Positions 1 through 11,563 of a DNA stretch of 12,589 nucleotides are shown here, one piece after another. Positions within the stretch are counted from its first letter, which is position 1. The number at the start of each line of letters is the position of its first letter. The position numbers and the translations under genes are program-made. The notes beneath the pieces were generated by a model. It was not told where the DNA came from and ran no database searches. It was given only the letters and a program-made list of their open reading frames with translations. Origin of the DNA: a virus. The DNA lies in UHGV virus genome UHGV-0247912; one strand, given 5' to 3'.

Positions 1-1158
1 GAGATAGCTGATCGTGATGGCCTGTCAGCCAGGATAAGCCCAAAAGGGAAAATTACTTTCCAGTACCGTTACAGATTCAACGGTAAGCCAGTGCGAATGA
101 AGATCGGTGAATACGGGAAAATGAGTCTGAAAGACGCCCGCTATGCGGTGTCTGAATACAGGGAGTTGCTTACGAAAGGGAAGAATCCGGCACTGTGCGT
201 AAAGCAGGCCATAGCCTTTGAGCAGGGCAAGCGATCTATATCCGACGTAGTGGAAGACTATCTATCCCTGCCGAACGTCATTAAGCTGGTGGCATATAAA
301 GAAGTCAAAAGCGCATTGATGCGCCACGTAGTCAACAAGTACGGCGACTACATAGCTGACGACGTAACGACAAAACAGTGGATGGATATATTTGGCGAGA
401 TCACTGCGGCGGGTCACGCGGTTACGGCTGGTTTGATATTGAAGCGAATGAAAATCATCGTTAACAGCGCAATCAGGCGTGGGCTAATGACTAACACGGC
501 GATAAACAATATCCGTGTAGCTGACGTTGGCGAGCATTATGCGGTGGTGGAGCGTTACCTTTCATGTGAGGAGATAGGCCACTTCTGGCGCACGGTAGAC
601 AGTTCGCAGATCTATCCGCAGAACAAAATAGCCTTAAAGCTATTATTGCTAACCGGGTGCAGGGTTGGTGAATTGCAGAAAATGAGAAGGGAACACCTAG
701 ATCTGGACAACGGTGTATGGACCGTTCCGGCGGCGGTGGCGAAGACAAGAAGTGAAATCAGGCGGGGATTATCTGACTTGTCGATAAAAATGCTCAGGGA
801 GGTTTTAACCTCCCATGAGTATGATTATGTATTCCCGCCAGTGATTAACGGCGGCAACAGGCCAGTAAACGTATCAGTGATAAAAGTAGCTGCAATATTC
901 GTGCGTAAAAGGATGGGCGGTAAATCATGGTCCTGTCACGACCTCCGCAGGACGTGCCGGACACACCTTTCAGCTATAGGTGTTCCGGTACATATTGCAG
1001 AAAAGATCTTAGGCCATTCATTAAGGGGAATACTGGCGGTGTACGACAAATATGATTATCTTGATGAACAAAAGGAGGCACTAAATAAGTTTGCTGATTA
1101 TGTGTTATCTTTGGCTGACGTTAAACCAATCCGATCAAAGAACTGCATTACGTCCTGA
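1..1158 (+). CDS. int: tyrosine recombinase / phage integrase (P4-type); N-terminus lies upstream of the window
   Basis: Frame 1 is open from base 1 (EIADRDGLSARISPKGKITFQYRYRFNGKPVRMKIGEY...), typical integrase N-terminal domain. C-terminal catalytic region has HDLRRT, LGHS and a Tyr near the end (AVYDKYDYL), i.e. the R-H-R-Y pattern. Stop TGA at 1156-1158. Confidence 0.9.
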   Translation, partial: EIADRDGLSARISPKGKITFQYRYRFNGKPVRMKIGEYGKMSLKDARYAVSEYRELLTKGKNPALCVKQAIAFEQGKRSISDVVEDYLSLPNVIKLVAYKEVKSALMRHVVNKYGDYIADDVTTKQWMDIFGEITAAGHAVTAGLILKRMKIIVNSAIRRGLMTNTAINNIRVADVGEHYAVVERYLSCEEIGHFWRTVDSSQIYPQNKIALKLLLLTGCRVGELQKMRREHLDLDNGVWTVPAAVAKTRSEIRRGLSDLSIKMLREVLTSHEYDYVFPPVINGGNRPVNVSVIKVAAIFVRKRMGGKSWSCHDLRRTCRTHLSAIGVPVHIAEKILGHSLRGILAVYDKYDYLDEQKEALNKFADYVLSLADVKPIRSKNCITS

Positions 1159-1328
1159 TAGCGGTACATAACGCCACGCCCGGTCCCAAGTACGTCAACC
1201 GGGTCGGGGAACGGAGTTCCGTTCCGTTCCCATTTTTTACGCCATAAGTAAAACGTTCCCCTGCTAATTCCCCCAAGCATCCGGCAGATGGCAGGGCGAC
1301 TAAGAAGGATTGCCCCGGTTTTATCCAT
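1098..1328 (-). CDS. xis: excisionase / AlpA-family small DNA-binding protein (putative Xis)
   Basis: 76 aa; HTH then FPDPVDVLGTGRGVMYRY, resembling the lambda Xis/AlpA pattern (FPPPVKDGREYLF). RBS GGGGGA about 6 nt before the ATG. Start overlaps the upstream stop (TAATG); 3' end overlaps the convergent int by 61 bp. Confidence 0.65.
   Translation of the reverse strand: MDKTGAILLSRPAICRMLGGISRGTFYLWRKKWERNGTPFPDPVDVLGTGRGVMYRYQDVMQFFDRIGLTSAKDNT
1207..1239 (+). terminator. candidate rho-independent terminator downstream of int, embedded in the convergent xis coding sequence
   Basis: GGGAACGG (1207-1214) pairs with CCGTTCCC (1224-1231), 8-bp stem and 9-nt loop, followed directly by A-TTTTTT (1232-1238), about 50 nt after the int stop. 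Confidence 0.4.
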
Positions 1329-1990
1329 TATTTATCCCCCGTGTATTCAACGTGTCCGATACATCCATCAATAATAGCTTGCGCCATATTGCGATAATCG
1401 CACGAAAAATCATTGTCGTGGTTAAAGTCAATCTCTTTTGCCGCGTCTTCACCCATAACATTGACAGCAAGTGCAAGCGCGATTTCAGCAAGTGCCTTTT
1501 CTTTCGGATCTATATGCAGCTTGAAAGAGCATGTTGTCCATGATAGCGGCCTCTCGCCACAAAAATCTTCCTTGCTTTCACATATAGCCCATTTATCACC
1601 AACATATTTAAACCTGACGACATCAAGAATAGTTCCACTTGTCAAACCTACGCAATCAAGCCACACATTAACAGGAGGCTTATCACCTACGACCCATTCC
1701 GTTTTTTCTTGTTGTGTTTCGCAGTCACGGCGTTCATCTTCGATTAATCCATCAATAATTTCACTTTCTTTATTCATGCCGTCATCATCCTTGTTAGATA
1801 AATTAGCGTATTTATCAAATTTCCAGCTTGCCGCCATAACTGAATAAGTGCCGCGAGTATCAGCGCGGACGCCAACTAAATAGCATGATCCAAAATTGTA
1901 TTCCGTGCGGCATGTTGTTACCTCAAACGATGGGTAAACATCAGGGTTAGTGCGATGACGAATTATGCCAATTACTCTTGATTCACTCAT
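1328..1990 (-). CDS. hypothetical Cys/His-rich protein (220 aa), low-GC cargo gene
   Basis: ORF 1328..2005 in the track; ATG at 1990 is preferred because it is preceded by GAGGA (the track start at 2005 is TTG). Local GC about 32-43% against about 50% in flanking phage genes. No recognisable family. Stop overlaps the xis start. Confidence 0.6.
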   Translation of the reverse strand: MSESRVIGIIRHRTNPDVYPSFEVTTCRTEYNFGSCYLVGVRADTRGTYSVMAASWKFDKYANLSNKDDDGMNKESEIIDGLIEDERRDCETQQEKTEWVVGDKPPVNVWLDCVGLTSGTILDVVRFKYVGDKWAICESKEDFCGERPLSWTTCSFKLHIDPKEKALAEIALALAVNVMGEDAAKEIDFNHDNDFSCDYRNMAQAIIDGCIGHVEYTGDK

Positions 1991-2005
1991 TTTGTTTATC
2001 CTCAA

Positions 2006-2182
2006 TTACGCCACTGTTACATTGTCAACCTTAATAAAATATTCAGGATGATTTTCTATTTCGTGCTTAAAGTGCGCGTGACACAATCGCCACTCACGCG
2101 CCTGGTTGTGAAAGTAATAAACGTATTCGCCATCAACCTTATACAAAATGCCTGTAGGTTTAGCCATGTAATAACTAGCCAT
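2006..2182 (-). CDS. small hypothetical protein (59 aa), nin-region ORF
   Basis: Found by manual translation (below the ORF-track size cutoff): MASYYMAKPTGILYKVDGEYVYYFHNQAREWRLCHAHFKHEIENHPEYFIKVDNVTVA. ATG overlaps the NinB stop (TAATG), suggesting translational coupling. No family recognised. Confidence 0.35.
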   Translation of the reverse strand: MASYYMAKPTGILYKVDGEYVYYFHNQAREWRLCHAHFKHEIENHPEYFIKVDNVTVA

Positions 2183-2613
2183 TATTGCCCCCAGCGTTTT
2201 ATAAATTCCTCGTTTAATTTCGTATCACCTGACCATTGAACATTATGTTCAGCACCGAACGAGTAGATCAGTTCGATTAATTCGCTAAATTCCGCTTTAC
2301 TCATCCGGCTGGTTGATGTTCCCAGCACAACAAAGCCTGATTTGTCCAGGTTAGGGACAACGCCATATTTCTTAAGCCCGGCAGTGAATACCGCCTTCCA
2401 GTCTTCCGGCGACAGCCTCTTACCGTACCAATTAACCTGATCACTAATGTCGGTTAGCAACGCCCATAGAAGGCTATTTTGGCTTAGCGAGCGGGTTTTC
2501 TCCTGGATGGTGATTATCAGCGGGCTTTTGCTATCAGGCTGTATTTCCCTTATCTGCCTGATAGCATTTTCTTTCACGGCGTCGTTGACTATCTCAAATC
2601 TAATTTGCCTCAT
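2182..2613 (-). CDS. ninB: NinB-family recombination protein (lambda Orf/NinB-like)
   Basis: 143 aa; MRQIRFEIVNDAVKENAIRQIREIQPDSKSPLIITIQEKTRSLSQNSLLWALLTDIS follows the pattern of lambda NinB (MKKLTFEIRSP...VVTIQERNRSLDQNRKLWA...). Start overlaps upstream stop (ATGA). Confidence 0.85.
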   Translation of the reverse strand: MRQIRFEIVNDAVKENAIRQIREIQPDSKSPLIITIQEKTRSLSQNSLLWALLTDISDQVNWYGKRLSPEDWKAVFTAGLKKYGVVPNLDKSGFVVLGTSTSRMSKAEFSELIELIYSFGAEHNVQWSGDTKLNEEFIKRWGQ

Positions 2614-3626: not shown

Positions 3627-5042
3627 TTAAAAAGATGCGTTATTCTGATTGTTTCGTTGGTTAAATCGGCTTGTGCGATGATTCATGGACTGAATACATG
3701 CAGACGCTGCGCGGGCCTGGTCACAAGGGAGGATATTGCCGTTGTCATCAAACCGCTGGTAAACAGTGCCAGTTTTCCCGTGACGGTTTTTAGATACAAT
3801 TATTTCCATATATTCGCGTGCTACAGACTGTTCATCGTAGTAACCATCGCGGTACACCATGATGATCCTGTCTGCATCTTGCTCAAGGTTCCCTGAATCA
3901 CGAAGATCAGAATTGTTAGGACGCTTGTTCGGGCGCTCCTCAACGCGGCGGGACAACTGCGCCAGCGCCAACACTGGTACGCGCAATTCTTTCGCCATCA
4001 TCTTCAACGACCACGACAATTGCCCTACAGCGAGATCGTGACGTTCGGCCTTAGCCAGCTTCATCAACCCTATGTAGTCAATCATTACCATACCCATGCT
4101 GGGGTGTTCCTGTTTCATCCGTTCTACGGTGGCGCGCATTTCCTCAACCGTTAACTGCGAAGCGTCAACGATCCACACATCAAGGTTAGCAAGTGCGCTC
4201 ATTCCCTGGCCGACATGCGCCCAACCATCATCATCAAGTTTTACCGGATTGCGCAGGCAGTCAGTTGATAAATTACCAGCGCCAGCGATGGCACGTTCGG
4301 TCATCTGATCGAGTGACATCTCAAGCGTGAAGAACAAAACGCCAACACGCTGATCCTTGCTGCCAGGGTAAGGGCATTCAGCAGCAGCGCGGGCAATTGC
4401 CAGCGCCAACGCAGATTTACCAGACCCAGGACGTCCGGCGAGAAGCACCAAATCAGTAGCGTTAATGCCGCCTAACATTTCGTCGAGTGGTTCTATCCCC
4501 GTTTTGATGTTGTCAGAATTGACACCGCATTCCATGCGTTTGCTTAACACCTCCGTGTATTCCTGTACCGCATCGCGCAACAACACCGGAATGATCTTGT
4601 CTTTCGTTACCTTTAATTTTGAATACCGGGAATCAAAATCCTTCATCGTTTCTTTGACTACTTCAAGCGTCCCCGTTTCCAGTTTGTAGCGCATATCGTC
4701 GATGAGTTCCAACATCTGCCGCCGCTGGTGCTCTTCACGTAGTAGCTGTGCGTATCCCTTCAGGTTGGCAGCAGAAGGACACGATCGCGCCGTTTGCATC
4801 AGTGGTACAAAGTTTTCATTGCCAATCTCATCGCCAACCAATAACGCGTCTATAAGATTTCTGTTTCTGGCTTGCGCCCGGATAACTTCAAACGCACGTT
4901 TATAAAGCGGGATCGTGAACACTTCAGGATCAAGCGTGGCGAGAACATCTTGCGCGTTAGGAGTAAGGCCACCCAACAACAGCCCGCCGATAACTGACGC
5001 CTCACGTTCCTGCCGTAGTGAGTTTATTTGCTCAGTTACCAT
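3627..5042 (-). CDS. replicative DNA helicase, DnaB family
   Basis: 471 aa; Walker A GRPGSGKS, DnaB-type motifs (FFTLEMS, IIVSKNRHGKTG, RFDDNG); RBS GGAGGAAA 8 nt before the ATG at 5042. C-terminal tail is longer than in E. coli DnaB. Confidence 0.9.
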   Translation of the reverse strand: MVTEQINSLRQEREASVIGGLLLGGLTPNAQDVLATLDPEVFTIPLYKRAFEVIRAQARNRNLIDALLVGDEIGNENFVPLMQTARSCPSAANLKGYAQLLREEHQRRQMLELIDDMRYKLETGTLEVVKETMKDFDSRYSKLKVTKDKIIPVLLRDAVQEYTEVLSKRMECGVNSDNIKTGIEPLDEMLGGINATDLVLLAGRPGSGKSALALAIARAAAECPYPGSKDQRVGVLFFTLEMSLDQMTERAIAGAGNLSTDCLRNPVKLDDDGWAHVGQGMSALANLDVWIVDASQLTVEEMRATVERMKQEHPSMGMVMIDYIGLMKLAKAERHDLAVGQLSWSLKMMAKELRVPVLALAQLSRRVEERPNKRPNNSDLRDSGNLEQDADRIIMVYRDGYYDEQSVAREYMEIIVSKNRHGKTGTVYQRFDDNGNILPCDQARAASACIQSMNHRTSRFNQRNNQNNASF

Positions 5043-5060: not shown

Positions 5061-6179
5061 TTACAAAATGGAAAATTCAGGGTAATAAACAAAGCGCCCG
5101 ATCTCTCCATGATCCTGGCTGTAAATAATAACCGCCGCCAGGCGACGCGACCGCCAGCCGCCATTAGTCGAATAGGCATCCTTACCCGCTAACGTGCCGT
5201 GATACTCAACAACGCCAAGCGATGACTCGATCAGCCGTTGATGATGCCAGTGCCCGCAGTGGGCGTAAACAGCAGCAGACTTGCCGAAATCCTCGCGCCA
5301 GTCAGCTACGCAAGCAGACAATAAATTTTCTGGCTTTTTGATAGTGTGCCCGTGGTGGTAAGCAAGAAATGTTTTGCCGTACTGTGTGTGGTGGACGATA
5401 GCAGGGGACACATCAACCGTCACGCGCGGTTCATCTTCGTAAAAAGCCGCCAGCGCCGCACGTAGCCAAATCATGCCTGACTGATCGTGATTGCCTGATA
5501 ACACCTGGATTTCAACATCTTTATGATTTAACAACATCTTTCCTACCGCCCGCCGTACAGACCGGATCGCCACATAAACAAGTTTTGCGTAGCGACTATC
5601 CTGATCAAGAATATGCCCGCTTGTTGGCGTAACCGGGACCATACCATCAGAATGAAGCAGGTCACCACCGAGAAGTAAGACGGCTTTTTCAGACATCGGA
5701 GCAGCGCCAACGGCATAATCAAAGAAGTTATTTAGCACGCGTTCAGCGATCCCAGTGTCGTAGCTCTCGCCGCATTCAGCTTTATGGGCAAGCGCCCCGA
5801 TATGCAGATCAAACACAGGATAAAGGGCCAGGCTTTTTTGAAAATCAATTTCAGGCACTGGCACAGCCTCCGCGCGTGGTATTTCATCAGTGAAAGCGTC
5901 GCGGGCCGCTTCCATTAGCTGTTCCATTTCTTCGCGGTCACGGGCTGTTTTAATCCAGCGCATGATAACATTGCCGTTCTTATCCACTAGCAACGACTCA
6001 CCATTGACGCCAAAACCAGGCGCGCGGCGTGTTGATAATAAACCCCGTTTCGCCAGTTTTGCGCCCAGGCGTTCGACATTGCGTTTAGACATGCCGTACT
6101 TTTCAGCGATCTGTTTGTACGTTAATCCGTTGTTATATTCAGCGATCAATTGCTCATCACTGATTTTTCTTTGCGACAT
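5061..6179 (-). CDS. HTH domain + calcineurin-like metallophosphoesterase domain protein (372 aa)
   Basis: ATG at 6179 with GGAGGG RBS (the track start at 6203 is an alternative start codon). N-terminal HTH (LTYKQIAEKYGMSKRNVERLGAKLAKRGLL); phosphoesterase-type motifs FDLH, GGDLLHSDG, GNHD, HHGH, GHWHH. Confidence 0.7.
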   Translation of the reverse strand: MSQRKISDEQLIAEYNNGLTYKQIAEKYGMSKRNVERLGAKLAKRGLLSTRRAPGFGVNGESLLVDKNGNVIMRWIKTARDREEMEQLMEAARDAFTDEIPRAEAVPVPEIDFQKSLALYPVFDLHIGALAHKAECGESYDTGIAERVLNNFFDYAVGAAPMSEKAVLLLGGDLLHSDGMVPVTPTSGHILDQDSRYAKLVYVAIRSVRRAVGKMLLNHKDVEIQVLSGNHDQSGMIWLRAALAAFYEDEPRVTVDVSPAIVHHTQYGKTFLAYHHGHTIKKPENLLSACVADWREDFGKSAAVYAHCGHWHHQRLIESSLGVVEYHGTLAGKDAYSTNGGWRSRRLAAVIIYSQDHGEIGRFVYYPEFSIL

Positions 6180-6212
6180 AATGTTAATCCCTCCAGTTAA
6201 CAAAATGTATAC

Positions 6213-6944
6213 CTACTTACACGCAAAAAGTTCAGACACCCAAAGTTGACCCTTAGCAGTAAATAGTGATTGGACGTAACCTCCAGCCGAACATTTTACC
6301 ACTCCATAGCCTTTGTCTACGAACCACTGCTTGAACATACGCCCGCCGCGCTTAATTCTCGTATCGTACACGTCAACCTGTTCAAGTTTTTTGTTGAGTT
6401 GCGTAGCAGTCATACCCAAAGGCTTGGCAACCTGTGTAGCGTTGCGATGCTGTTCGTTTCTTACAATCGCATCACAGACAGCCGCTTTCGGTGCTAATTC
6501 CTTATTTTCCAGCGCCAGACGATCAATTTCTTTCTGTGCTAATAGTTTTTGTTCAACCTCATCAGCCCATGCGCGAGCCGCCGCCACCGGATCAGTGAAA
6601 TCCGGCAAAGCTGGCTGCCGTACCTGTTTTTCGAGTTCCTGCCAGCGATCGACAAGTCGCGCCGTAAATTCAGGGCAGTTTTGAGCAACGACAATTATAC
6701 TATCTCGCTTGCCCTGCTCGCCTTCAAAAACGTAGGCCTTATCTTTTACCTTGAATCCTAAGTTATTGATTCTTTCGAGAAACTGCAATGCAGGACGCCG
6801 GATTACACCTTTATCAGCAAGGCGTTCTATAGAAACAAGCATGTTATCGTGACGGAACTTATTAACTCCGTTCCACTTATTTAGAAAATCAACGATCTCA
6901 ATACTGTTCATCTTAACAGCATCAAACACCATTAATTCAGACAT
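6213..6944 (-). CDS. rha: Rha-family phage regulatory protein / antirepressor-like (Rha N-terminal domain + ANT/KilAC-like C-terminal domain)
   Basis: ATG at 6944 with GGAG RBS. N-terminus has SIEIVDFLNKWNGVNKFRHDNMLVSIERL (the RHDN signature of Rha); C-terminus has ATQVAKPLGMTATQLNKKLEQVDVYDTRIKRGGRMFKQWFVDKGYG. Confidence 0.7.
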   Translation of the reverse strand: MSELMVFDAVKMNSIEIVDFLNKWNGVNKFRHDNMLVSIERLADKGVIRRPALQFLERINNLGFKVKDKAYVFEGEQGKRDSIIVVAQNCPEFTARLVDRWQELEKQVRQPALPDFTDPVAAARAWADEVEQKLLAQKEIDRLALENKELAPKAAVCDAIVRNEQHRNATQVAKPLGMTATQLNKKLEQVDVYDTRIKRGGRMFKQWFVDKGYGVVKCSAGGYVQSLFTAKGQLWVSELFACK

Positions 6945-7076
6945 TGTAATTTCTCCGTAAAACGCGCTACAACGCAAAAATCCCACCGCGTAACCCGTTT
7001 GCACAGGTTGCAGTGTCTTATTGCGTTATAGACGCTCTCAGGTGGCTAATTTTTGATTTACAGGATGGTATGAAGG

Positions 7077-7178
7077 TTATAGATTGACCAGAAGGAACAA
7101 ACCGCCGAACAAAGCGACGTTAACGGCGATTGCAGCAGCGATGGCAAAAGCCAGGGCAAAAACGTGTTTACCGTCCAT
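7077..7178 (-). CDS. small hydrophobic single-helix peptide (33 aa)
   Basis: MDGKHVFALAFAIAAAIAVNVALFGGLFLLVNL; strong RBS GAGAGGA about 8 nt before the ATG at 7178; hand-translated codon by codon. It is the C-terminal part of track ORF 7077..7439. Confidence 0.45.
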   Translation of the reverse strand: MDGKHVFALAFAIAAAIAVNVALFGGLFLLVNL

Positions 7179-7311
7179 TTTGAAATCCTCTCTAAAACGC
7201 TCTCTAACGAGATAAATAGCTAAAGGTATGCAAGTGTAGCACTCAATGCTTTTTAGCTCGCTGGCGAGCTTGTTTTGCGGGTAATTTTGTGTTTTTGCGG
7301 ATCGTGTTTGG

Positions 7312-8364
7312 TCAAAGAGCGCCACATCGTGTATCACGTAGCGTTTTTGGTTTAAGCAGGAAATCAAGTGTCGCAGTGAAGCCATCGCCGAAGTAAAAAT
7401 CTGAAGCATTGTTTTTGAACGTTTCAAAGTAGGCGACAAAGCCGTTAATGCTTTTGTCTTTCAGGTAGTCAGTGAACGCATAAATCTTGCGTTCAAGATC
7501 CCGATCCAGTTCGGCAGGTGGCAACATGCCATCAAACGTGCTGTTAAATGCCTCCACTACGTCGGCAGCGTTTGCAGTGGCTGACAGTTTGCGCCATTTT
7601 TCAGCATCAGCCAGATACCCATCAAATTTAGTCACCCGGCAAATGTTTATAGGCTTAGGTGTTCCACCACGGCTACGCCATTGCGTTAAAGCCCACTCAA
7701 TCACTAATGTGATCTCATCCTCCGTATACGCTTTACGTGTTTTTGTTTCTGTCAGTAGTTCTACGAATGGCTTAGCATCACGACATTTACACCCTGCCTT
7801 TTCGTTGTAGAAGTCAAGGCAACGCAATGCCGCATCGCTTATCTGAAAGTCACCATCCTGATTAACTTCTTTTCTTTTTATATTTTTCTTTTCTTCTTCT
7901 GTTTCTTTTTCTTCTTCTACTTCTATTTCTAATTCATGACCCTTTCCTGACCCGGTCATGACCCTATCATGACCCTTTGGTGTTGGATTGATTAACTTTT
8001 CTAATTTTAATTGCTCCTTCGCTGTGTTTATGGCGGCCCTGTAAGCGCTTTTAGAAGTCATTGATTGGTCCAGCCTTTTCAATAACTTTAAACAAGTTAT
8101 GTGGCCTTGAGAACATTCAAACAAACCAATTTCGATGAAGTATTTCATCATTTCTTCTATACGTTTTTCAGTAGATCCGACGTTTCGCGCAATGATTCTC
8201 GCGTCATGTCGTAGGTCAAAAGTCAGATTGTGCTGATCTACGTCATAAGTTATTAGTTCGAGGCAATACCAATAAAGCCCGTACCCTTCCAGGCCATAAT
8301 CTAACAAAACGTTTTGAAGTTTTTCATCGCGGTTCGCATCGCTGTCATGCTTAAACCACTTCAT
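7312..8364 (-). CDS. replication initiation protein / replisome organizer (O-like, phage replisome-organizer N-terminal domain type)
   Basis: 350 aa; N-terminus MKWFKHDSDANRDEKLQNVLLDYGLEGYGLYWYCLELI matches the replisome-organizer N-terminal domain pattern; acidic/basic linker; RBS GGAGGG; lies directly downstream of the immunity region. Confidence 0.8.
   Translation of the reverse strand: MKWFKHDSDANRDEKLQNVLLDYGLEGYGLYWYCLELITYDVDQHNLTFDLRHDARIIARNVGSTEKRIEEMMKYFIEIGLFECSQGHITCLKLLKRLDQSMTSKSAYRAAINTAKEQLKLEKLINPTPKGHDRVMTGSGKGHELEIEVEEEKETEEEKKNIKRKEVNQDGDFQISDAALRCLDFYNEKAGCKCRDAKPFVELLTETKTRKAYTEDEITLVIEWALTQWRSRGGTPKPINICRVTKFDGYLADAEKWRKLSATANAADVVEAFNSTFDGMLPPAELDRDLERKIYAFTDYLKDKSINGFVAYFETFKNNASDFYFGDGFTATLDFLLKPKTLRDTRCGAL
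7861..7933. repeat. AT-rich homopyrimidine/homopurine tract next to the iterons (candidate DNA unwinding element)
   Basis: About 70 bp almost entirely C/T on the plus strand (cttcttttctttttatatttttcttttcttcttctg...); encodes the Glu/Lys-rich linker of the initiator. Confidence 0.5.
7934..7977. repeat. four tandem 11-bp iterons (TCATGACCCTT-like), candidate origin of replication inside the initiator gene
   Basis: Plus strand units: 7934-7944 tcatgaccctt, 7945-7955 tcctgacccgg, 7956-7966 tcatgacccta, 7967-7977 tcatgaccctt. Units 1 and 4 are identical; the period is one helical turn. Confidence 0.6.
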
Positions 8365-8367
8365 AGA

Positions 8368-8625
8368 TCATCCCTCCGGCAACATCACTACATAGACATC
8401 ACTGAATGCATCAAGACGACAAACAAATCCTTTATCCATTAACGCGGCGAAGGCATCATGTACCGTATGAACAGGAAGTTCACACATTGCGGCTACTTCT
8501 TTGCGTGATGCATCATGTACCCGTCCTTTGTTATCTGCCTTTTCAGCCAGAGCCATTAAGACAAGTTTTTGAATCGGGCTATTAAGTTTTACGTTCCATG
8601 CTTTACTAATCATGTTTATACTCAT
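8368..8625 (-). CDS. small HTH / winged-helix DNA-binding protein (85 aa), first gene of the rightward-type operon (Cro/CII position)
   Basis: ATG at 8625 with AGGAG RBS (track ORF 8368..8703 starts earlier without an RBS); KLVLMALAEKADNKGRVHDASRKEVAAMCELPVHTVHDAFAALMDKGFV looks like a winged-helix DNA-binding domain. Confidence 0.55.
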   Translation of the reverse strand: MSINMISKAWNVKLNSPIQKLVLMALAEKADNKGRVHDASRKEVAAMCELPVHTVHDAFAALMDKGFVCRLDAFSDVYVVMLPEG

Positions 8626-8733
8626 CGCATTTTCTCCTATGGTTAGAGTGAACGCGCGGGCGGGCATCCCATTAGCATTAGATAGCAGTGACTGACCGCT
8701 CAACAGATCCCGCCGTTGCGTGATATTTGTTTT

Positions 8734-8767
8734 TCGCTTCGCAGCGACACCGGATTTTTAAAGAGCA
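8734..8767 (-). promoter_or_regulatory. candidate nutR-like site (boxA-like plus hairpin) in the minus-strand leader
   Basis: Minus strand reads TGCTCTTTAAAAAT (close to lambda nutR boxA CGCTCTTAAAAATT), then 6 nt, then hairpin UCGCU-GCGA-AGCGA. Confidence 0.3.
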
Positions 8768-8809
8768 TAAGGTAAGTGCCTTTTTGTGCCTTCCGTATCT
8801 TTTTCCTTG

Positions 8810-8929
8810 CGTCTTTGCAAGTATGGCCTTACCTTGTCTGCAAGTTTACAAAATGGAATTTTAAGATCAAGGCTTAAAATACACGTTTTGTGACTTGCAT
8901 CAAACTTTTTGAGGTTATAGGGTAGCGAC
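8810..8929. promoter_or_regulatory. divergent immunity control region (PR-like and PRM-like promoters, candidate operators)
   Basis: Lies between the divergent cI-type gene and the minus operon. Heptamer TGCAAGT at 8816-8822 and 8839-8845 and its complement ACTTGCA at 8893-8899. Possible minus-strand promoter TTGATG (8905-8900), 16-nt spacer, TATTTT (8881-8876). Exact operators and promoters are not resolved. Confidence 0.4.
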
Positions 8930-9577
8930 ATGAAAACAAAATGGTATGACTTAGCAAAGCAGCTCATGCGGGCGCAGGGCATGAGCCAGGATTCACTCGC
9001 GGATCGTATGGGGATAACTAAAGGCGGCCTGTCACACTGGCTGAACGGTCGCCGAGAGCCAAATCTTGAAGATATTGCGCGGATTATGCGCGAGCTTGGT
9101 CGTCGGCAGTTTACTGTTACACATGATGGCATGGTCATTGATGATTCTGTTTCTAATACACTTCAGGCCGTGCCGCCGCGTGATTTAGGTAGTTACCCGG
9201 TTATTGACTGGAAGGACACAGTAAACAATATGGATGACGCAAGGCGTTCAGCATTACGACACGTTACGACTAGCGTTATTTGTTCAGATGACAGTTACTG
9301 GCTGGTTGCCAAAGGTGAATCAATGAACGCGCCGCAGGGGTTGAGCATCCCGGCGGGGACGATGATACTTGTGGACCCGCACGCGCCAGCTATTGACGGC
9401 AAACTGGTTATAGCCCAGCTTGAGGAAGGGCAGATACCGACGTTTAAACAGTTGATTATTGATGGAGGTCAAAGGCTTTTACGTTCGCTCAATCCGCTGT
9501 ATCCGCCAATCCCTATGAATCCAGAATCAAAAATTATAGGCGTGGTGGTTGATGCGAAGATCGTAAACCTGCCATAA
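8930..9577 (+). CDS. cI: cI-type phage repressor (N-terminal HTH, C-terminal LexA/S24 autopeptidase domain)
   Basis: 215 aa; HTH GMSQDSLADRMGITKGGLSHWLNG; C-terminus GESMNAP...TFKQLIIDGGQRLLRSLNPLYPPIP parallels lambda cI ([24 protein letters not shown]) including the catalytic Ser and Lys. Confidence 0.9.
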   Translation: MKTKWYDLAKQLMRAQGMSQDSLADRMGITKGGLSHWLNGRREPNLEDIARIMRELGRRQFTVTHDGMVIDDSVSNTLQAVPPRDLGSYPVIDWKDTVNNMDDARRSALRHVTTSVICSDDSYWLVAKGESMNAPQGLSIPAGTMILVDPHAPAIDGKLVIAQLEEGQIPTFKQLIIDGGQRLLRSLNPLYPPIPMNPESKIIGVVVDAKIVNLP

Positions 9578-9582
9578 ACATT

Positions 9583-9607
9583 AGCCGCCGAATGGCGGCT
9601 TTTCTTT
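9583..9607 (+). terminator. rho-independent terminator after the repressor gene
   Basis: AGCCGCC-gaat-GGCGGCT (7-bp GC-rich stem) followed by TTTCTTT, 6 nt after the stop codon. Confidence 0.65.
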
Positions 9608-9699
9608 GCCTGGAAAACACCAAAACGTAAACAGAAAACGTTATTTATTATTTAAATATCAATGGCATATAAAATATTTTAAAAAAGTATACAAAATGG

Positions 9700-9728
9700 A
9701 TTGACTCGATGTTTTACGGGGCGTATAT
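9700..9728 (+). promoter_or_regulatory. strong sigma70-type promoter (PL-like), AT-rich upstream region
   Basis: -35 TTGACT (9700-9705), 17-nt spacer, -10 TATATT (9723-9728); very AT-rich 9640-9698 (UP-element-like). Confidence 0.5.
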
Positions 9729-9983
9729 TGCGAGTCAAAGGAAGGGCGCAGGTAACAAAAGCAACTTCCTGGCACTTTAAAAATCAGGCTTAACACCTTG
9801 TCAACCGTGGAGTAACTCCCCGATGGGGGACCGAAAGCGGCACTGATAACAAGGCGCATGGGGTGTTTAAAGCGTTACATCCCCCACGAAACCGCACGCA
9901 AGGCGACGAGTCAGCTTGCTTGGAGTGAGCAAGGTCACGCCGGGAACGGCGATGATTGCGGGATTAGTTGAAAGATGTTAAGC

Positions 9984-10077: not shown

Positions 10078-10368
10078 ATGAGCGTTACAATTATATATGG
10101 TAAATGTGATAGCAAAATGAATGCCAGGGAACGCAGAAGGATAAAAAGAGAAAACGAAAGAAAATCATCACCTGCAATCAATAAAACAGACAATGTGGAT
10201 AAAGCTATTCGATTTGCAAACGAGGAAAGATGCAAACCAAATAGCATTAAAGAACGTCGCAAAGGATCAGTAAAATGGTATACGGAAAATGAAAGCGGCA
10301 GCTACTACCACGCAACGCAACCACGCCATTTAGGGGAAAAACCCCTGGATAAAGTCCGCTACCATTAA
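10078..10368 (+). CDS. N: N-like transcription antitermination protein (arginine-rich motif)
   Basis: 96 aa; N-terminus MSVTIIYGKCDSKMNARERRRIKRENERK has an arginine-rich motif like lambda N (MDAQTRRRERRAEKQ) and, from memory, P22 gp24; first gene after the PL-like promoter and nut-like site; RBS GGAG 8 nt upstream. Confidence 0.7.
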   Translation: MSVTIIYGKCDSKMNARERRRIKRENERKSSPAINKTDNVDKAIRFANEERCKPNSIKERRKGSVKWYTENESGSYYHATQPRHLGEKPLDKVRYH

Positions 10369-10398: not shown

Positions 10399-10521
10399 AT
10401 GGTTATTCAGGCGCTTCAATTCAAACTGGCAGTAGCGGAAATGCTTCACGATGCCGAAATGTGGAGCGCCGCGAATAAAGCCTTATACATAGTGTTAACA
10501 GCACGGGAGATTAAATGGTGA
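10399..10521 (+). CDS. small hypothetical protein (40 aa), translationally coupled to erf (Arf-like position)
   Basis: Manual translation: MVIQALQFKLAVAEMLHDAEMWSAANKALYIVLTAREIKW. RBS GGAGGTGA before the ATG at 10399; its stop overlaps the erf start (ATGGTGA). Confidence 0.45.
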   Translation: MVIQALQFKLAVAEMLHDAEMWSAANKALYIVLTAREIKW

Positions 10522-11159
10522 AAACAGAGTTACATAAAAAGCTATGGACGATTCAGCAAACGCTGAACGCGCCGAAAAATCAGCGTAATAATTTTGGTGG
10601 ATATAATTACAGGTCGGCGGAGGATATTTTAGAGGCGGTTAAACCACTGCTTCAAAGTATTACGCTGACTGTAAGCGATGAAATTGTCCTGATCGGCAAT
10701 CGCTATTATGTGAAAGCTACGGCGACGCTAAGCGACGGTGAAGACGAAATAGCGGTAACGGCTTACGCCAGGGAAGAAGAAAGCAAGAAGGGAATGGACG
10801 CAAGCCAGCTAACAGGTGCGACATCAAGTTACGCGCGAAAATATGCTTTGAACGGTTTATTCTGCATTGATGATGCGCGAGATCCTGATACTGACGCATA
10901 CGCTAAGCAGACAGGCCAGCAGCCTCGCCAGCAGAAAAACCCACCAAAACAACAACCACAGCAGCAGAAAGCGCCGCCAAATCCTGATGAAGTATTAGCA
11001 CGTTTCTGTGATGCAGCAGCGAAAGCGCAGGACGCTAACAAGCTGCGTGAAATATTTGGCAAATGCTGGAAATTACTACCGGAAGGATCGGAACATCGAA
11101 TCAAGGCAAAAGATGTTTATGACATCCGGGTAGCAGAGCTTAACGGGGAGATGGGTTAA
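10515..11159 (+). CDS. erf: Erf-family single-strand annealing recombination protein
   Basis: 214 aa; NFGGYNYRSAEDILEAVKPLL...GNRYYVKATATLSDGE...AREEESKKGMDASQLTGATSSYARKYALNGLFCIDDARDPD matches the conserved Erf core (P22 Erf-like); Q/P-rich linker. Confidence 0.9.
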   Translation: MVKTELHKKLWTIQQTLNAPKNQRNNFGGYNYRSAEDILEAVKPLLQSITLTVSDEIVLIGNRYYVKATATLSDGEDEIAVTAYAREEESKKGMDASQLTGATSSYARKYALNGLFCIDDARDPDTDAYAKQTGQQPRQQKNPPKQQPQQQKAPPNPDEVLARFCDAAAKAQDANKLREIFGKCWKLLPEGSEHRIKAKDVYDIRVAELNGEMG

Positions 11160-11563
11160 TGAGTTTAAATTCAATCACGCTGGGCGGGAATATCGGTAAT
11201 GATATGGAGGTTCGCTACACACAAAACGGGAAAGCGATTGGTAGTTTTCCGTTAGCTGTAACGAATGGCTACGGCGATAATAAGCGGACAATGTGGGTCA
11301 CTTGCCTGGTATTTGGTGAGCGTGCGGAAAAATTAGCGCCACATATCCGCAAGGGTGGAAAAATAGTGGTAAGCGGTCGCCTGGATGTTCGGCAATATGA
11401 CCGGAACGACGGCACGAAGGGAACGGCGGTAGAAGTGGCGGTTAACGAATTTGAATTCATGAACGTTAACCAACAAGGCCAGCAGCAGAAAGCGCCTCCG
11501 CAGCAGCAGAATAATAACGGGAATAATCCGCCGATGGACTTTGATGACGATATCCCGTTTTGA
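11159..11563 (+). CDS. ssb: single-stranded DNA-binding protein (short phage SSB)
   Basis: 134 aa; OB-fold N-terminus (ITLGGNIGNDMEVRYTQNGKA...), Q/N/P-rich linker and acidic C-terminal tip DFDDDIPF; start overlaps the erf stop (TAATG). Confidence 0.9.
   Translation: MSLNSITLGGNIGNDMEVRYTQNGKAIGSFPLAVTNGYGDNKRTMWVTCLVFGERAEKLAPHIRKGGKIVVSGRLDVRQYDRNDGTKGTAVEVAVNEFEFMNVNQQGQQQKAPPQQQNNNGNNPPMDFDDDIPF

Follow-up and report, generated by a model that had tools for sequence, protein, structure and literature searches.

Both lambda and P22 carry, beside att, a tyrosine integrase and a small winged-helix recombination directionality factor (RDF). The xis and int genes of lambda point the same way, with a head-to-tail overlap, and PL serves both; xis lies distally in an early operon that is antiterminated by N and controlled by CI. 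Integrases uncoupled from this arrangement have precedents in Phi24B (PMC3064807) and KplE1 (PMC2951348, PMC3509656). In this regard, the Int/Xis pair of the Shiga-toxin phage Phi24B (vB_EcoP_24B) has been experimentally validated (Fogg et al. 2011, PMC3064807). Its int, of the P4 type, is inverted with respect to lambda and has its own promoter. The convergent xis overlaps the 3' end of int by 17 bp (1389-1405) and closes the classical PL operon (N, ssb, gam, bet, exo), an early operon under the control of CI. A second case is the IntS-TorI module of KplE1, HK620 and Sf6 (Panis et al. 2010, PMC2951348; 2012, PMC3509656). In KplE1, torI is the last prophage gene at the attR end, where it neither converges with nor overlaps intS, and integration takes place into the tRNA argW. 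Our literature search on convergent overlapping int/xis pairs found no dedicated study besides these KplE1 and Phi24B papers.

More recently, the mEpimmI coliphages (mEp021, mEp515, mEp554, mEp010, mEp013 and mEp044) have been described (Negrete-Mendez et al. 2025, PMC11893012), among them the close relatives of the DNA analysed here, complete plaque-forming siphophages of 53-55 kb with virion proteins verified by MS. High synteny, including the layout discussed here, extends across all 48 mEpimmI genomes, and the integration site, either ydaM(dgcM), abgT or mppA, is set by the type of integrase (PMC11893012). The repressor of mEp021, Rep021, was tested experimentally in the same work, which never names an excisionase, offers only an 'AlpA-family transcriptional regulator' in its list of core proteins and is silent on any overlap between int and its helix-turn-helix (HTH) neighbour (PMC11893012). 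As published, nutL lies upstream of the repressor gene, on the replication-operon side of cI.

The stretch of DNA analysed here (hereafter the window) comprises 12,589 nucleotides of the virus genome UHGV-0247912. Its best database match is an E. coli prophage inserted in dgcM (94% covered, 94.9% identical), and mEp515, mEp554 and mEp021 cover 77-91% of it at ~89% nucleotide identity (megablast), all four elements keeping the gene order of the window. On this comparison of similarity and synteny, which spans the 12.6-kb window, the DNA is a further variant of the gut coliphage group published in 2025 and no new kind of element. With good confidence, we assign it to the 'mEpimmI' (mEp021-like) group, as the early region of a temperate siphophage or of a prophage, in which positions 1-1328 hold a site-specific recombination module made of int and the gene that most probably encodes its excisionase. 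Both the window and mEp021 have a type I integrase and the same 61-bp overlap, whereas a zinc-ribbon gene of mEp021 is replaced in the window by a KilAC gene, and the HNH and methyltransferase genes of mEp021 are absent from the window.

The original prediction had ordered the genes as int(+), xis(-), cargo, NinB, helicase, initiator and regulator, followed by cI(+), N, erf and ssb, and Pfam and PHROG profiles confirmed this order (Table 1). In agreement with the strand assignments, the GC skew changes sign at ~1200 and ~8800. The product of 5061-6203 has a counterpart in the related locus L003 that PGAP names 'metallophosphoesterase family protein', and the replication-initiation genes at 7312..8703 match PHROG 4617 (replication initiation, 4.2e-22) and correspond to gp13/gp14 of mEp021. 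The repressor is 94% identical over 198 aa to mEp021 gp15 (Rep021), and the Gp17 of the window, 93% identical to that of mEp021, keeps the arginines 17, 19, 20 and 24 conserved in the group (its NARERRRIKR stretch gives R17, R19, R20, R21 and R24). In the relatives, the genes for Gp17, Erf and SSB are the start of an operon that runs on to NinF/NinG/RusA/Q and the late genes. The cargo genes orf225 and orf58 found no match in Pfam, PHROG or NCBIfam, and Rfam at gathering thresholds gave no known RNA element in the window.

Table 1. Features of the 12,589-nt window, with the evidence for each.
Feature	Position	Strand or place	Evidence or remark
Tyrosine integrase, P4 type	1..1158	+	Pfam, PHROG, homologues
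Winged-helix protein, 76 aa, probable recombination directionality factor	1098..1328	-	Last cistron of replication/NinB operon
Convergent 3'-3' overlap, 61 bp	1098..1158	both strands	Read from ORFs
Candidate int terminator, hairpin + T6	1207..1240	+	Terminator scan; function inferred
Right boundary of int/xis/att cassette	1296..1297	~codon 10-11 of HTH gene	Megablast, alignments
TAATG junction orf225/HTH gene	1326..1330	-	Sequence
orf225 + orf58, between NinB and HTH gene ('cargo')	1328..2182	-	Homologues in same place in mEp021, mEp010, L003
NinB	2182..2613	-	Pfam NinB 3e-46
Replicative DnaB-type helicase	3627..5042	-	Pfam DnaB_C 4.8e-76, DnaB 5.3e-12
Metallophosphoesterase-type protein, N-terminal HTH	5061..6203	-	PHROG 704, 1.2e-141
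KilAC protein	between metallophosphoesterase and Lin1244_N genes	-	Domain annotation
Lin1244_N replication protein	7312..8364	-	Pfam Lin1244_N 7.2e-11
O-like wHTH	8368..8703	-	Head of operon; relatives annotate shorter 81-aa form
Candidate nutL	8734..8767	-	boxA-like + hairpin; assignment inferred
CI-type repressor (HTH_3 + Peptidase_S24), immunity I	8930..9577	+	Pfam
N-like antiterminator Gp17	10078..10368	+	PHROG 271
Erf	10515..11159	+	Pfam ERF 7e-42
SSB	11159..11563	+	Pfam SSB 1.5e-23

The integrase is encoded in frame 1 of the plus strand, which, read from base 1, has no stop codon before the TGA at 1156-1158. Its gene lacks the 5' end, because the window starts inside it: in the 95%-identical prophage, the homologue begins 57 nt further upstream, and 19 N-terminal codons fall outside the window. 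Both the Phage_integrase (1e-20) and Arm-DNA-bind_3 (3.8e-16) models of Pfam match above their gathering scores, PHROG 1 integrase matches at 1.8e-63, and the translation contains the box residues LLTGCRVGEL, HDLRRT, LGH and AVYDKYDY. An arm-binding (DUF4102) N-terminus followed by an R..HxxR..H..Y catalytic domain places it among the P4-type tyrosine recombinases. Identities reach 89% with the integrase of mEp021, 49% with the type II integrase of mEp010 and 32% (8e-62) with Phi24B Int.

On the minus strand, an ATG-initiated ORF of 76 aa (1328->1098) meets the 3' end of int, and the 61-bp overlap predicted at 1098-1158 proved to be exact. The last 20 codons of int are paired with the last 19 codons plus the stop of the HTH gene, leaving the int TGA opposite the conserved YQD codons of the latter. 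Two annotations have the overlap independently, those of mEp021 in GenBank (int 186..1400, HTH 1340..1570) and of E. coli LP-26-E1-261 by PGAP (5944..7158 and 7098..7328). It is barely credible that the overlap is an artefact of annotation or chance in which expression of one ORF in fact stops short of the annotated end. A convergent 3' overlap of 8-61 bp, with both ORFs conserved, recurs in all 19 int/HTH modules examined, the experimentally studied Phi24B pair included; the two ORFs are intact in all relatives, and the stop codons of both genes are fixed by sequence. Such a reading could appeal to the Int residues beyond ~ADYVL, which are not conserved among homologues, and to the low confidence of the final 10 residues of the HTH model, but the overlapped part of the HTH gene also encodes a conserved and confidently modelled C-terminal helix (residues 57-66; YRYQDV motif). 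With 61 bp, the window and mEp021 have the longest overlap among the 19 modules, and overlap length follows the non-conserved tail of Int after the EQ motif, with 16-17 residues corresponding to 8-25 bp and 28 residues to 61 bp. The overlap itself would mostly be a by-product, the C-terminal tail of Int continuing antisense to the C-terminal helix of the excisionase until a stop codon is reached.

From its sequence and surroundings, the 76-aa HTH protein is very probably the cognate excisionase of the window integrase. As other small RDFs, it has fewer than 100 residues, is modelled by AF2 as a winged helix and is encoded beside an integrase. A profile of its family aligns over its full length to Phi24B Xis (prob 86%, E 4.8e-6, 52 columns), a remote link that pairwise BLASTP recovers only marginally (E 0.003). 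The family is small, since an exhaustive HMMER search gave just 19 clusters, and a word-index protein search with the HTH protein yielded E. coli proteins alone, all of them near-identical. A convergent int homologue (38-44% identical) accompanies the HTH homologue, with an overlap of 8-46 bp, in 16 of the 18 loci, which come from at least 13 genera of Enterobacterales and share no further gene with the window except ssb in two of them. In the other two (L006, L008) the HTH homologue lacks a convergent int and lies beside a different, co-directional xis-like/int pair. Moreover, the HTH gene closes a recET/erf operon in prophages of Citrobacter, K. oxytoca and Sodalis and in phages Oslo and Pm34, and thus occupies the classical position of xis.

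It is unlikely that the protein is instead a transcription factor of the AlpA/PrtN type with no part in directionality, be it an activator, a repressor or an antiterminator acting for example in int or late control, so that adjacency to int would reflect only the control of int expression. A case for it can be made from the sequence models, which are generic for HTH proteins: in Pfam the sequence matches HTH_23 alone, the window protein has no match to AlpA (PF05930; one of 16 family members at E 0.2, 12 bits vs 21) or to HTH_17 (PF12728; two of the 16 match), and it misses the cut-off of the NCBIfam model Xis_Gifsy_1 (15 bits vs 60). The winged-helix fold is likewise found in MerR-like domains that are no RDFs (GlnR, BldC, gpNu1, PrtN, AlpA activators), AlpA and PrtN activators as well as MerR-like regulators are among the fold neighbours, and the profile matches P. 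aeruginosa AlpA, if weakly (E 0.31). The AlpA-family regulator named as a core protein of the mEpimmI group (PMC11893012) would agree with such a role. Foldseek with the HTH model gave no match at E 1e-3 or better, and sequence searches of PDB returned only a spurious stretch of glutamate decarboxylase and a weak one of AlpA. Against a pure regulator stand the full-length profile alignment to a validated Xis of the same geometry, the swapping of the gene along with int and the att core, as fits att-specific DNA binding, its occupation of the xis slot at the end of lambdoid recombination operons, and the lack of any other excisionase candidate beside int. Both roles are in any case compatible, because TorI is an RDF that also regulates the int promoter.

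For the excisionase assignment, fold, profile match to Phi24B Xis, cassette co-variation and convergent synteny all bear out the 'xis' label originally given to 1098-1328, short of proof. The int/HTH pair of the window can be predicted to be the same kind of module as Int/Xis of Phi24B, with a P4-type int inverted relative to lambda and a convergent xis candidate that closes an early operon. Differences from Phi24B are the longer overlap, the attB, which is not that of the mEpimmI-type element, and the operon that the gene closes, here the replication/NinB operon. KplE1/TorI was considered as the closest relative and rejected, given that its RDF gene lies at the opposite prophage end and that it integrates into a tRNA, Phi24B offering the better fit. 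The AlpA-family excisionase of GIsul2 (PDB 8c3t) is 20-22% identical to the HTH protein, which differs from it in a longer wing and an extra C-terminal helix plus tail.

As had been predicted, the order of modules differs from that of lambda and P22. The replication/NinB operon occupies the place of lambda PR, starting back to back with the promoter region of cI, and runs into xis/int. The tyrosine integrase and the probable winged-helix RDF beside att are shared with these two phages, and so would be, with lambda, the distal place of xis in an early operon antiterminated by N and controlled by CI. In contrast with the co-directional pair of lambda, int(+) and the HTH gene(-) are convergent. 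The immunity region has the topology of lambda in mirror image (replication operon <- P / P -> cI -> P -> N), and the operon downstream of cI, in the position of lambda PL (N-like, erf, ssb), points away from xis/int. On the other hand, lambda has Q and the late genes behind the replication operon, whereas the mEpimmI layout has them behind the N/recombination operon. Going by topology alone, we infer a lambda map with one inversion reaching from the recombination genes to ninB, 'rearranged' being valid only in an evolutionary sense. Replication and recombination blocks lie on swapped sides, and therefore xis is found on the replication operon and Q with the late genes on the N/recombination operon.

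The original prediction had gone further, proposing a different attachment-site position or a rearranged or satellite-like element. That a rearranged, defective or satellite-like island, or an unusual place of att, explains int beside the replication/nin operon is highly improbable. The gene order unlike that of lambda and P22, the absence of late genes inside the window and the frequency of P4-type integrases and AlpA-like genes in satellites and islands would favour such an origin. The relatives with the same early region are, however, plaque-forming phages of 53-55 kb with Q, lysis and virion genes and with the identical order. Satellites and PICI-like elements are ~10-20 kb long and lack virion and lysis genes, a description that the element, judged from its close relatives, does not fit. 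On the map of mEp021, the N/erf operon is followed by NinF/NinG/RusA/Q, lysis, terminase, head and tail genes, and part of this late region is seen in the related loci L003 and L026. A private rearrangement is likewise contradicted by synteny, the layout being common to 48 genomes, well-characterised relatives among them. As for att, both the site and the int promoter lie beyond the window and are described here from the 95%-identical prophage, where att is found directly upstream of int, as usual. Its core consists of 12 bp, TCCAGACAGGAC, inside the 5' end of dgcM, and the site adjoins int upstream and the tail-fibre end, as in lambda. Integration linked to a tRNA, for which a gene near int had been suggested as worth looking for, was rejected, since ARAGORN detected no such gene either in the window or in 19 related loci.

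A comparison of integrase types revealed how the module travels. Between type I and type II modules, int and the HTH gene are 49% and 46% identical, respectively, in adjoining DNA of at least 90% identity. On the right, megablast matches of phages and prophages with type II integrases begin at window position 1296/1297, with at least 90% identity beyond this breakpoint and ~50% (protein) to its left, and the left boundary lies in the P arm of attP. By sequence comparison, att core, int and the small HTH gene are exchanged as one cassette. With ~1.6 kb, this cassette is portable: Salmonella and Proteus lambdoid phages have it, as do prophages across many genera of Enterobacterales. It ends the recombination operon in lambdoid phages and the replication operon in mEpimmI phages. 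Since the identity of the operon varies, the conserved rule would be that xis comes last on a repressor-controlled early operon and that int has its own promoter. Two points go beyond the literature reviewed, the HTH protein as the very probable excisionase of mEpimmI phages and the operon-swapped plug-in of one and the same cassette. Annotation of prophages should also benefit, as the HTH gene is usually labelled hypothetical.

These features suggest a simple regulatory logic. In the 95%-identical relative, the interval from the att core to the int start codon contains direct repeats and a site resembling a promoter, and the P arm (attR side) has direct repeats about one helical turn apart, ACCAAATA twice and AAWATCAAAAAC twice. 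The int gene, which is read inward from the att site, would have its own promoter inside the att arm and thus stand outside the control of CI, and Int may repress this promoter, as in KplE1 and Phi24B. Repressor-independent expression of the integrase is predicted, which might bear on multiple lysogeny, as in Phi24B. The excisionase gene, in turn, would come last, as a translationally coupled cistron, in the early operon lying back to back with the cI promoter. In this line, the stop of orf225 (1330-1328) and the ATG of the HTH gene (1328-1326) share one base in a TAATG junction, also present in L003 (7328), which suggests that translation of the HTH gene is coupled to that of orf225. A candidate nutL, on the transcript toward the replication genes and the HTH gene, consists of a boxA-like TGCTCTTTA (8767-8759) followed by a hairpin TCGCT-GCGA-AGCGA (8747-8734), its exact assignment being putative, and the N-like Gp17 would antiterminate the operon. 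With xis on this operon, the excisionase would be made only after inactivation of the repressor, and its presence alone would turn Int from integration to excision.

The conserved 3'-3' overlap could add a further layer to this switch if the transcripts of int and xis, being antisense to each other, made the expression of Int and Xis mutually antagonistic, a proposal that we consider rather doubtful. The int transcript may end at the hairpin at 1207-1240, antisense to two thirds of xis, and the Gp17-antiterminated early transcript may cross xis into antisense int, so that antagonism may arise from convergent transcription and RNA pairing. If true, the overlap would provide a sib-like retroregulation that sharpens the choice between integration and excision in the whole Phi24B/mEpimmI module family. 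The hairpin with its T6 run is the best terminator-like site in the scan of the window (11 pairs, 6 of them G-C) and lies in the int sense 50-80 nt past the int stop, inside the HTH ORF and opposite the codons KKWERNGTPFP. mEp021 likewise has a hairpin and T run (-12.0 kcal/mol), and so does mEp010, though its stem differs (-14.4). An int-sense terminator inside xis as a family-wide feature was discarded and remains a lead only, for beyond the three mEpimmI module types that have it, distant modules and Phi24B show it weakly or not at all. The T run of the hairpin is itself partly dictated by the conserved KKW codons.

At ~89% identity, 77-91% of the window aligns with the Escherichia phages mEp515, mEp554 and mEp021; it also matches 35 E. 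coli chromosomes, the best of which reaches 94.9% identity across 94% of the window. Protein identity to mEp021 amounts to 94% for the repressor (Rep021), 93% for the N-like protein (Gp17) and 89% for the integrase; the N-like protein has arginine at positions 17, 19, 20, 21 and 24. The mEpimmI group, to which mEp021 belongs, was described in 2025 and consists of temperate, Nus-dependent siphophages of human faecal origin, termed "non-lambdoid"; its 48 genomes are highly syntenic, and attB depends on the integrase type: the 5' end of ydaM (dgcM), abgT or mppA (Negrete-Mendez et al. 2025, PMC11893012). The gene order of the original prediction, int(+), xis(-), cargo, NinB, helicase, initiator, regulator, then cI(+), N, erf, ssb, was borne out, and the GC skew changes sign at the assigned strand switches. 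That order had been thought odd, and a rearranged or satellite-like element had been suspected. The whole annotated mEp021 genome, with int(+) followed by HTH, NinB, helicase and replication genes, all (-), and then by the (+) genes for repressor, Gp17, erf, ssb, anti-RecBCD, methylases, NinF, NinG, RusA and Q, has the same architecture; its (+) genes continue through lysis, terminase, head, tail, J and fibres up to the other att end, the late genes being attached to the N/recombination operon. Synteny comparison thus indicates that int next to nin is the normal arrangement throughout a phage group already described, whose members are complete, and neither suspicion was sustained. The replication operon is mosaic (window 5061-7004 versus mEp021 6080-9224): a 1.5-kb zinc-ribbon gene occupies in mEp021 the position of the KilAC antirepressor-like gene, an HNH endonuclease and an N4/N6 methyltransferase are extra in mEp021 and absent from the window, and the 380-aa metallophosphoesterase/HTH gene has 73% nucleotide identity to Klebsiella siphophages Sin4 and IME328.

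Features of the window and of the attachment site in a 95%-identical prophage
Feature	Position	Strand	Remarks
int	1-1158	+	frame 1, open from base 1 to TGA at 1156-1158; 385 residues encoded in window
Small (xis-like) gene	1328-1098	-	ATG ORF, 76 codons
Common stretch of int and small gene	1098-1158		61 bp, tail to tail
Terminator-like hairpin, strong	1207-1240	+	GGGAACGGAGTTCCGTTCCGTTCCC + ATTTTTT; int-sense strand, inside small-gene coding sequence
End of nucleotide similarity to type II-integrase phages/prophages	1296/1297		exact; about codon 10-11 of small gene
Two genes without known function, then NinB		-	between small gene and helicase
DnaB-type helicase; metallophosphoesterase with HTH; KilAC protein; Lin1244_N replication protein; O-like wHTH		-	KilAC gene at 6213-7004
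boxA-like, then hairpin	8767-8734	-	TGCTCTTTA
boxA-like + A-rich stretch	8759-8767	-	TGCTCTTTAAAAATC
boxA-like + A-rich stretch	9772-9786	+	GCACTTTAAAAATC
Exact copies of 10-mer TACAAAATGG	8847-8856, 9690-9699, 5062-5071	+	
Imperfect inverted repeat, 27 nt	8839-8865 / 8873-8899		includes one TACAAAATGG copy
cI, N-like protein, Erf, SSB		+	
Bidirectional hairpin, perfect	9583-9600		AGCCGCCGAATGGCGGCT; T runs on both strands; directly past cI stop
Promoter-like site	9701-9729		10/12 matches, best in window
Direct repeat at prophage junctions	L003 5756-5767; L026 8161-8172		TCCAGACAGGAC, 12 bp; strain LP-26-E1-261, the two prophage ends

The labels "rightward-type" and "leftward-type" given to the two operons are apt, because the immunity region has the lambda topology in mirror image: the start of the leftward replication operon and the cI promoter region are back to back, and cI is followed by a terminator, a promoter-like site, a boxA-like element and the N-like gene. 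The far ends differ from lambda, since NinB is kept with the replication genes, xis/int coming next, whereas NinF, NinG, RusA and Q come after the recombination genes, 18 kb away in mEp021. On topological grounds the map can be read as a lambda map with the block from the recombination genes to ninB inverted; the inversion would concern the ancestry of the whole mEpimmI group and does not speak for a recent rearrangement. The nutL site published for mEp021 is on the leftward-operon side of cI and nutR1/nutR2 are on the Gp17 side, and the boxA-like elements with A-rich stretches on both divergent early transcripts appear to fit nutL and nutR1, the boxB hairpins having no confident assignment. 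The hairpin past cI parts this gene from the promoter of the N-like operon. With at most one mismatch, the 10-mer occurs nine times in the window, against 1.3 copies expected by chance; two exact copies flank cI, one in each early promoter region, and the -35 of the best promoter-like site is directly adjacent to one of the two. The copies and the inverted repeat near cI are candidate CI operators.

An unusual attachment-site position had also been proposed. The att site was read from the 95%-identical prophage of strain LP-26-E1-261, where int lies 188 bp from dgcM, the opposite end adjoins zntB, and the 12-bp repeat TCCAGACAGGAC, the att core, occurs at both junctions. The attR side bears the first dgcM codons (MITHNFNTLDLLTSPVW, complementary strand), and insertion therefore took place at about codons 14-17 of dgcM, in agreement with the mEpimmI paper (PMC11893012). 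As read from this relative, att would lie at its ordinary place, immediately upstream of int and beside the tail-fibre end; the proposed unusual position was not confirmed, and no tRNA gene is present in the window or in 19 related loci. The stretch between att core and int ATG of the relative has a single promoter-like site (TTAACT-17-TAAAAT), three direct copies of TCCGTNCAA and two of GTRACCAAAA; judging from this relative, the int promoter must be inside the att arm. Integration parts the promoter and first codons of dgcM, a diguanylate cyclase gene, from the remainder; PGAP still annotates a full-length-looking dgcM at attL, and the truncated gene is immediately downstream of the phage leftward early operon, on the same strand.

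The int frame was judged to be cut by the window edge because its homologue in the closest prophage begins 57 nt further upstream, leaving the first 19 codons outside; its product matches Pfam Phage_integrase (1e-20) and the P4-type Arm-DNA-bind_3 (3.8e-16). The 61-bp overlap of the original prediction stands, as given by the ORF coordinates and by independent annotation of an identical overlap in mEp021 and one E. coli genome. That it could be an artefact is excluded, for the stop codons are fixed by the sequence and the overlap is conserved, tail to tail, in 19/19 modules examined (8-61 bp). Its length follows that of the Int C-terminal tail beyond the ...Y-D-x-EQ... region, which is conserved; the tail has 16-17 residues where the overlap is 8-25 bp and 28 where it is 61 bp, the small protein ending constantly 10-18 residues past its YRYxxV motif in the 19 modules. 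In the window, the C-terminal helix of the small protein, conserved and confidently modelled, is encoded opposite the non-conserved Int tail LSLADVKPIRSKNCITS, and YQD codons of the small gene face the int stop TGA. The most economical reading has tight convergent packing as the trait that is conserved, the int frame running into the other gene until a stop, and the window/mEp021 type is the extreme case among the 19 modules. The hairpin with T run inside the small gene is also found in mEp021 and, with another stem, in the type II phage mEp010, and distant modules lack it; should int transcription end there, its mRNA would be antisense to ~2/3 of the xis-like gene.

Sequence models do not decide whether the small protein is an excisionase: its sole above-threshold match is the generic HTH_23, and Xis_Gifsy_1 (E 0.017), AlpA (E 0.2, one relative) and HTH_17 (2/16 relatives) fall far under their cut-offs. 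The family is small, a search of 1.8 billion proteins giving 19 clusters at 50% identity, and in the mEpimmI paper only an "AlpA-family transcriptional regulator" is mentioned among the core proteins (PMC11893012). The AlphaFold model (pLDDT 83) has a strand-helix-helix-wing-helix order, and its neighbours in a viral structure library are Excise, AlpA, PrtN and TorI proteins. Such a fold is compatible with a role purely as a transcription factor, of the AlpA/PrtN kind, and recombination directionality factors (RDFs) such as TorI act as regulator and directionality factor both; a pure regulator is nevertheless less likely in view of the link to Phi24B Xis and of the exchange of the gene together with int and att. 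In this regard, the family profile covers the full length of Phi24B Xis in hhalign (probability 86%, E 4.8e-6), and Phi24B Int shares 32% identity (8e-62) with the integrase of the window. Phi24B, whose xis was validated experimentally and whose int is expressed independently of CI (Fogg et al. 2011, PMC3064807), carries an int of the P4 type that is transcribed from the att side inwards, its 3' end overlapping by 17 bp with a 60-aa xis on the opposite strand.

As for the exchange, nucleotide similarity to type II-integrase relatives ends within the small gene, DNA identity of at least 90% giving way to protein identity of 49% (int) and 46% (small protein), with the geometry unchanged and a 43-bp overlap. 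Because one breakpoint falls at codon 10-11 of the small gene and the second in the P arm of attP, a single exchange unit of ~1.6 kb is indicated, comprising part of the P arm, core, P' arm, int and most of the small gene. A P-arm segment with a terminator hairpin and TGTGTACCAAATnGnGACCAAAT is common to type I and type II attP (last 120 bases of loci L002 and L027; mEp021 150-175); cores and P' arms differ, and type II has ATCGTGTCA repeats. Type I also has the TGTGTACCAAA..GTGACCAAAA motif a further time, immediately before the int ribosome-binding site.

A scan that took one genome per species gave 18 loci, in Enterobacterales; 16 of these, spread over at least 13 genera, have an integrase (38-44% identity to that of the window) that converges on the small gene with an overlap of 8-46 bp, and no further window gene is present in them save ssb in two loci. 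The small gene is terminal in an operon with RecE/RecT/Gp157/methylase genes in prophages of Citrobacter, Klebsiella oxytoca and Sodalis. The lambdoid phages vB_SosS_Oslo and Pm34 have it at the end of the cI-N-kil-erf (or recET) operon, beside int and tail fibres, which is the classical xis position. Since the same cassette ends recombination operons elsewhere, the identity of the operon is secondary, and the conserved requirement seems to be the last place on a repressor-controlled, antiterminated early operon, either one. Fold, Phi24B Xis homology, cassette exchange and synteny agree, and the small protein is thus very probably the cognate directionality factor of int, so that the xis call was reasonable and is now better supported. 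Enterobacter adelaidei (L006 5965-7989) and a Symbiopectobacterium MAG (L008 5983-9736) have a homologue without convergent P4-type integrase; downstream of it are another AlpA/Xis-like ORF and a co-directional integrase from a different family, and the two loci may represent tandem or hybrid elements. Related int/HTH prophages of Citrobacter (L011 8105-10083) and Klebsiella oxytoca (L018 8461-10435) adjoin the same host genes (DUF481 gene, PfkB kinase), which suggests a conserved non-tRNA attB for this integrase subtype.

The small gene, joined to its upstream neighbour by a TAATG junction (coupling), is the last of a tightly packed leftward operon of 7.6 kb. In the lysogen, CI would silence this operon and no excisionase would be made, while int would have a promoter of its own, inside the att arm, perhaps with autoregulation, as shown for IntS in KplE1. 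Upon repressor cleavage, Gp17-modified polymerase would reach the operon end and excisionase would appear with the replication proteins. Directionality would be set by RDF supply alone, the logic of Phi24B and KplE1, which differs from the co-transcription and sib retroregulation of lambda.

A published phage group has this architecture, and for the convergent overlapping int/xis geometry Phi24B provides a precedent studied by experiment. The new content is modest overall: a very probable excisionase assignment for mEpimmI phages, the limits of a portable att-int-xis cassette common to lambdoid phages of several genera, and its attachment to the replication operon in the window. Erf and SSB have Q/P-rich low-complexity stretches (10950-11010, 11470-11560) with a common motif, QQQKAPP, and upstream of them 74 bp in erf (10773-10846) are 84-85% identical to Bacteroides phages, a match probably due to chance or composition. 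The mEp021 SSB was listed among virion proteins by mass spectrometry (PMC11893012).
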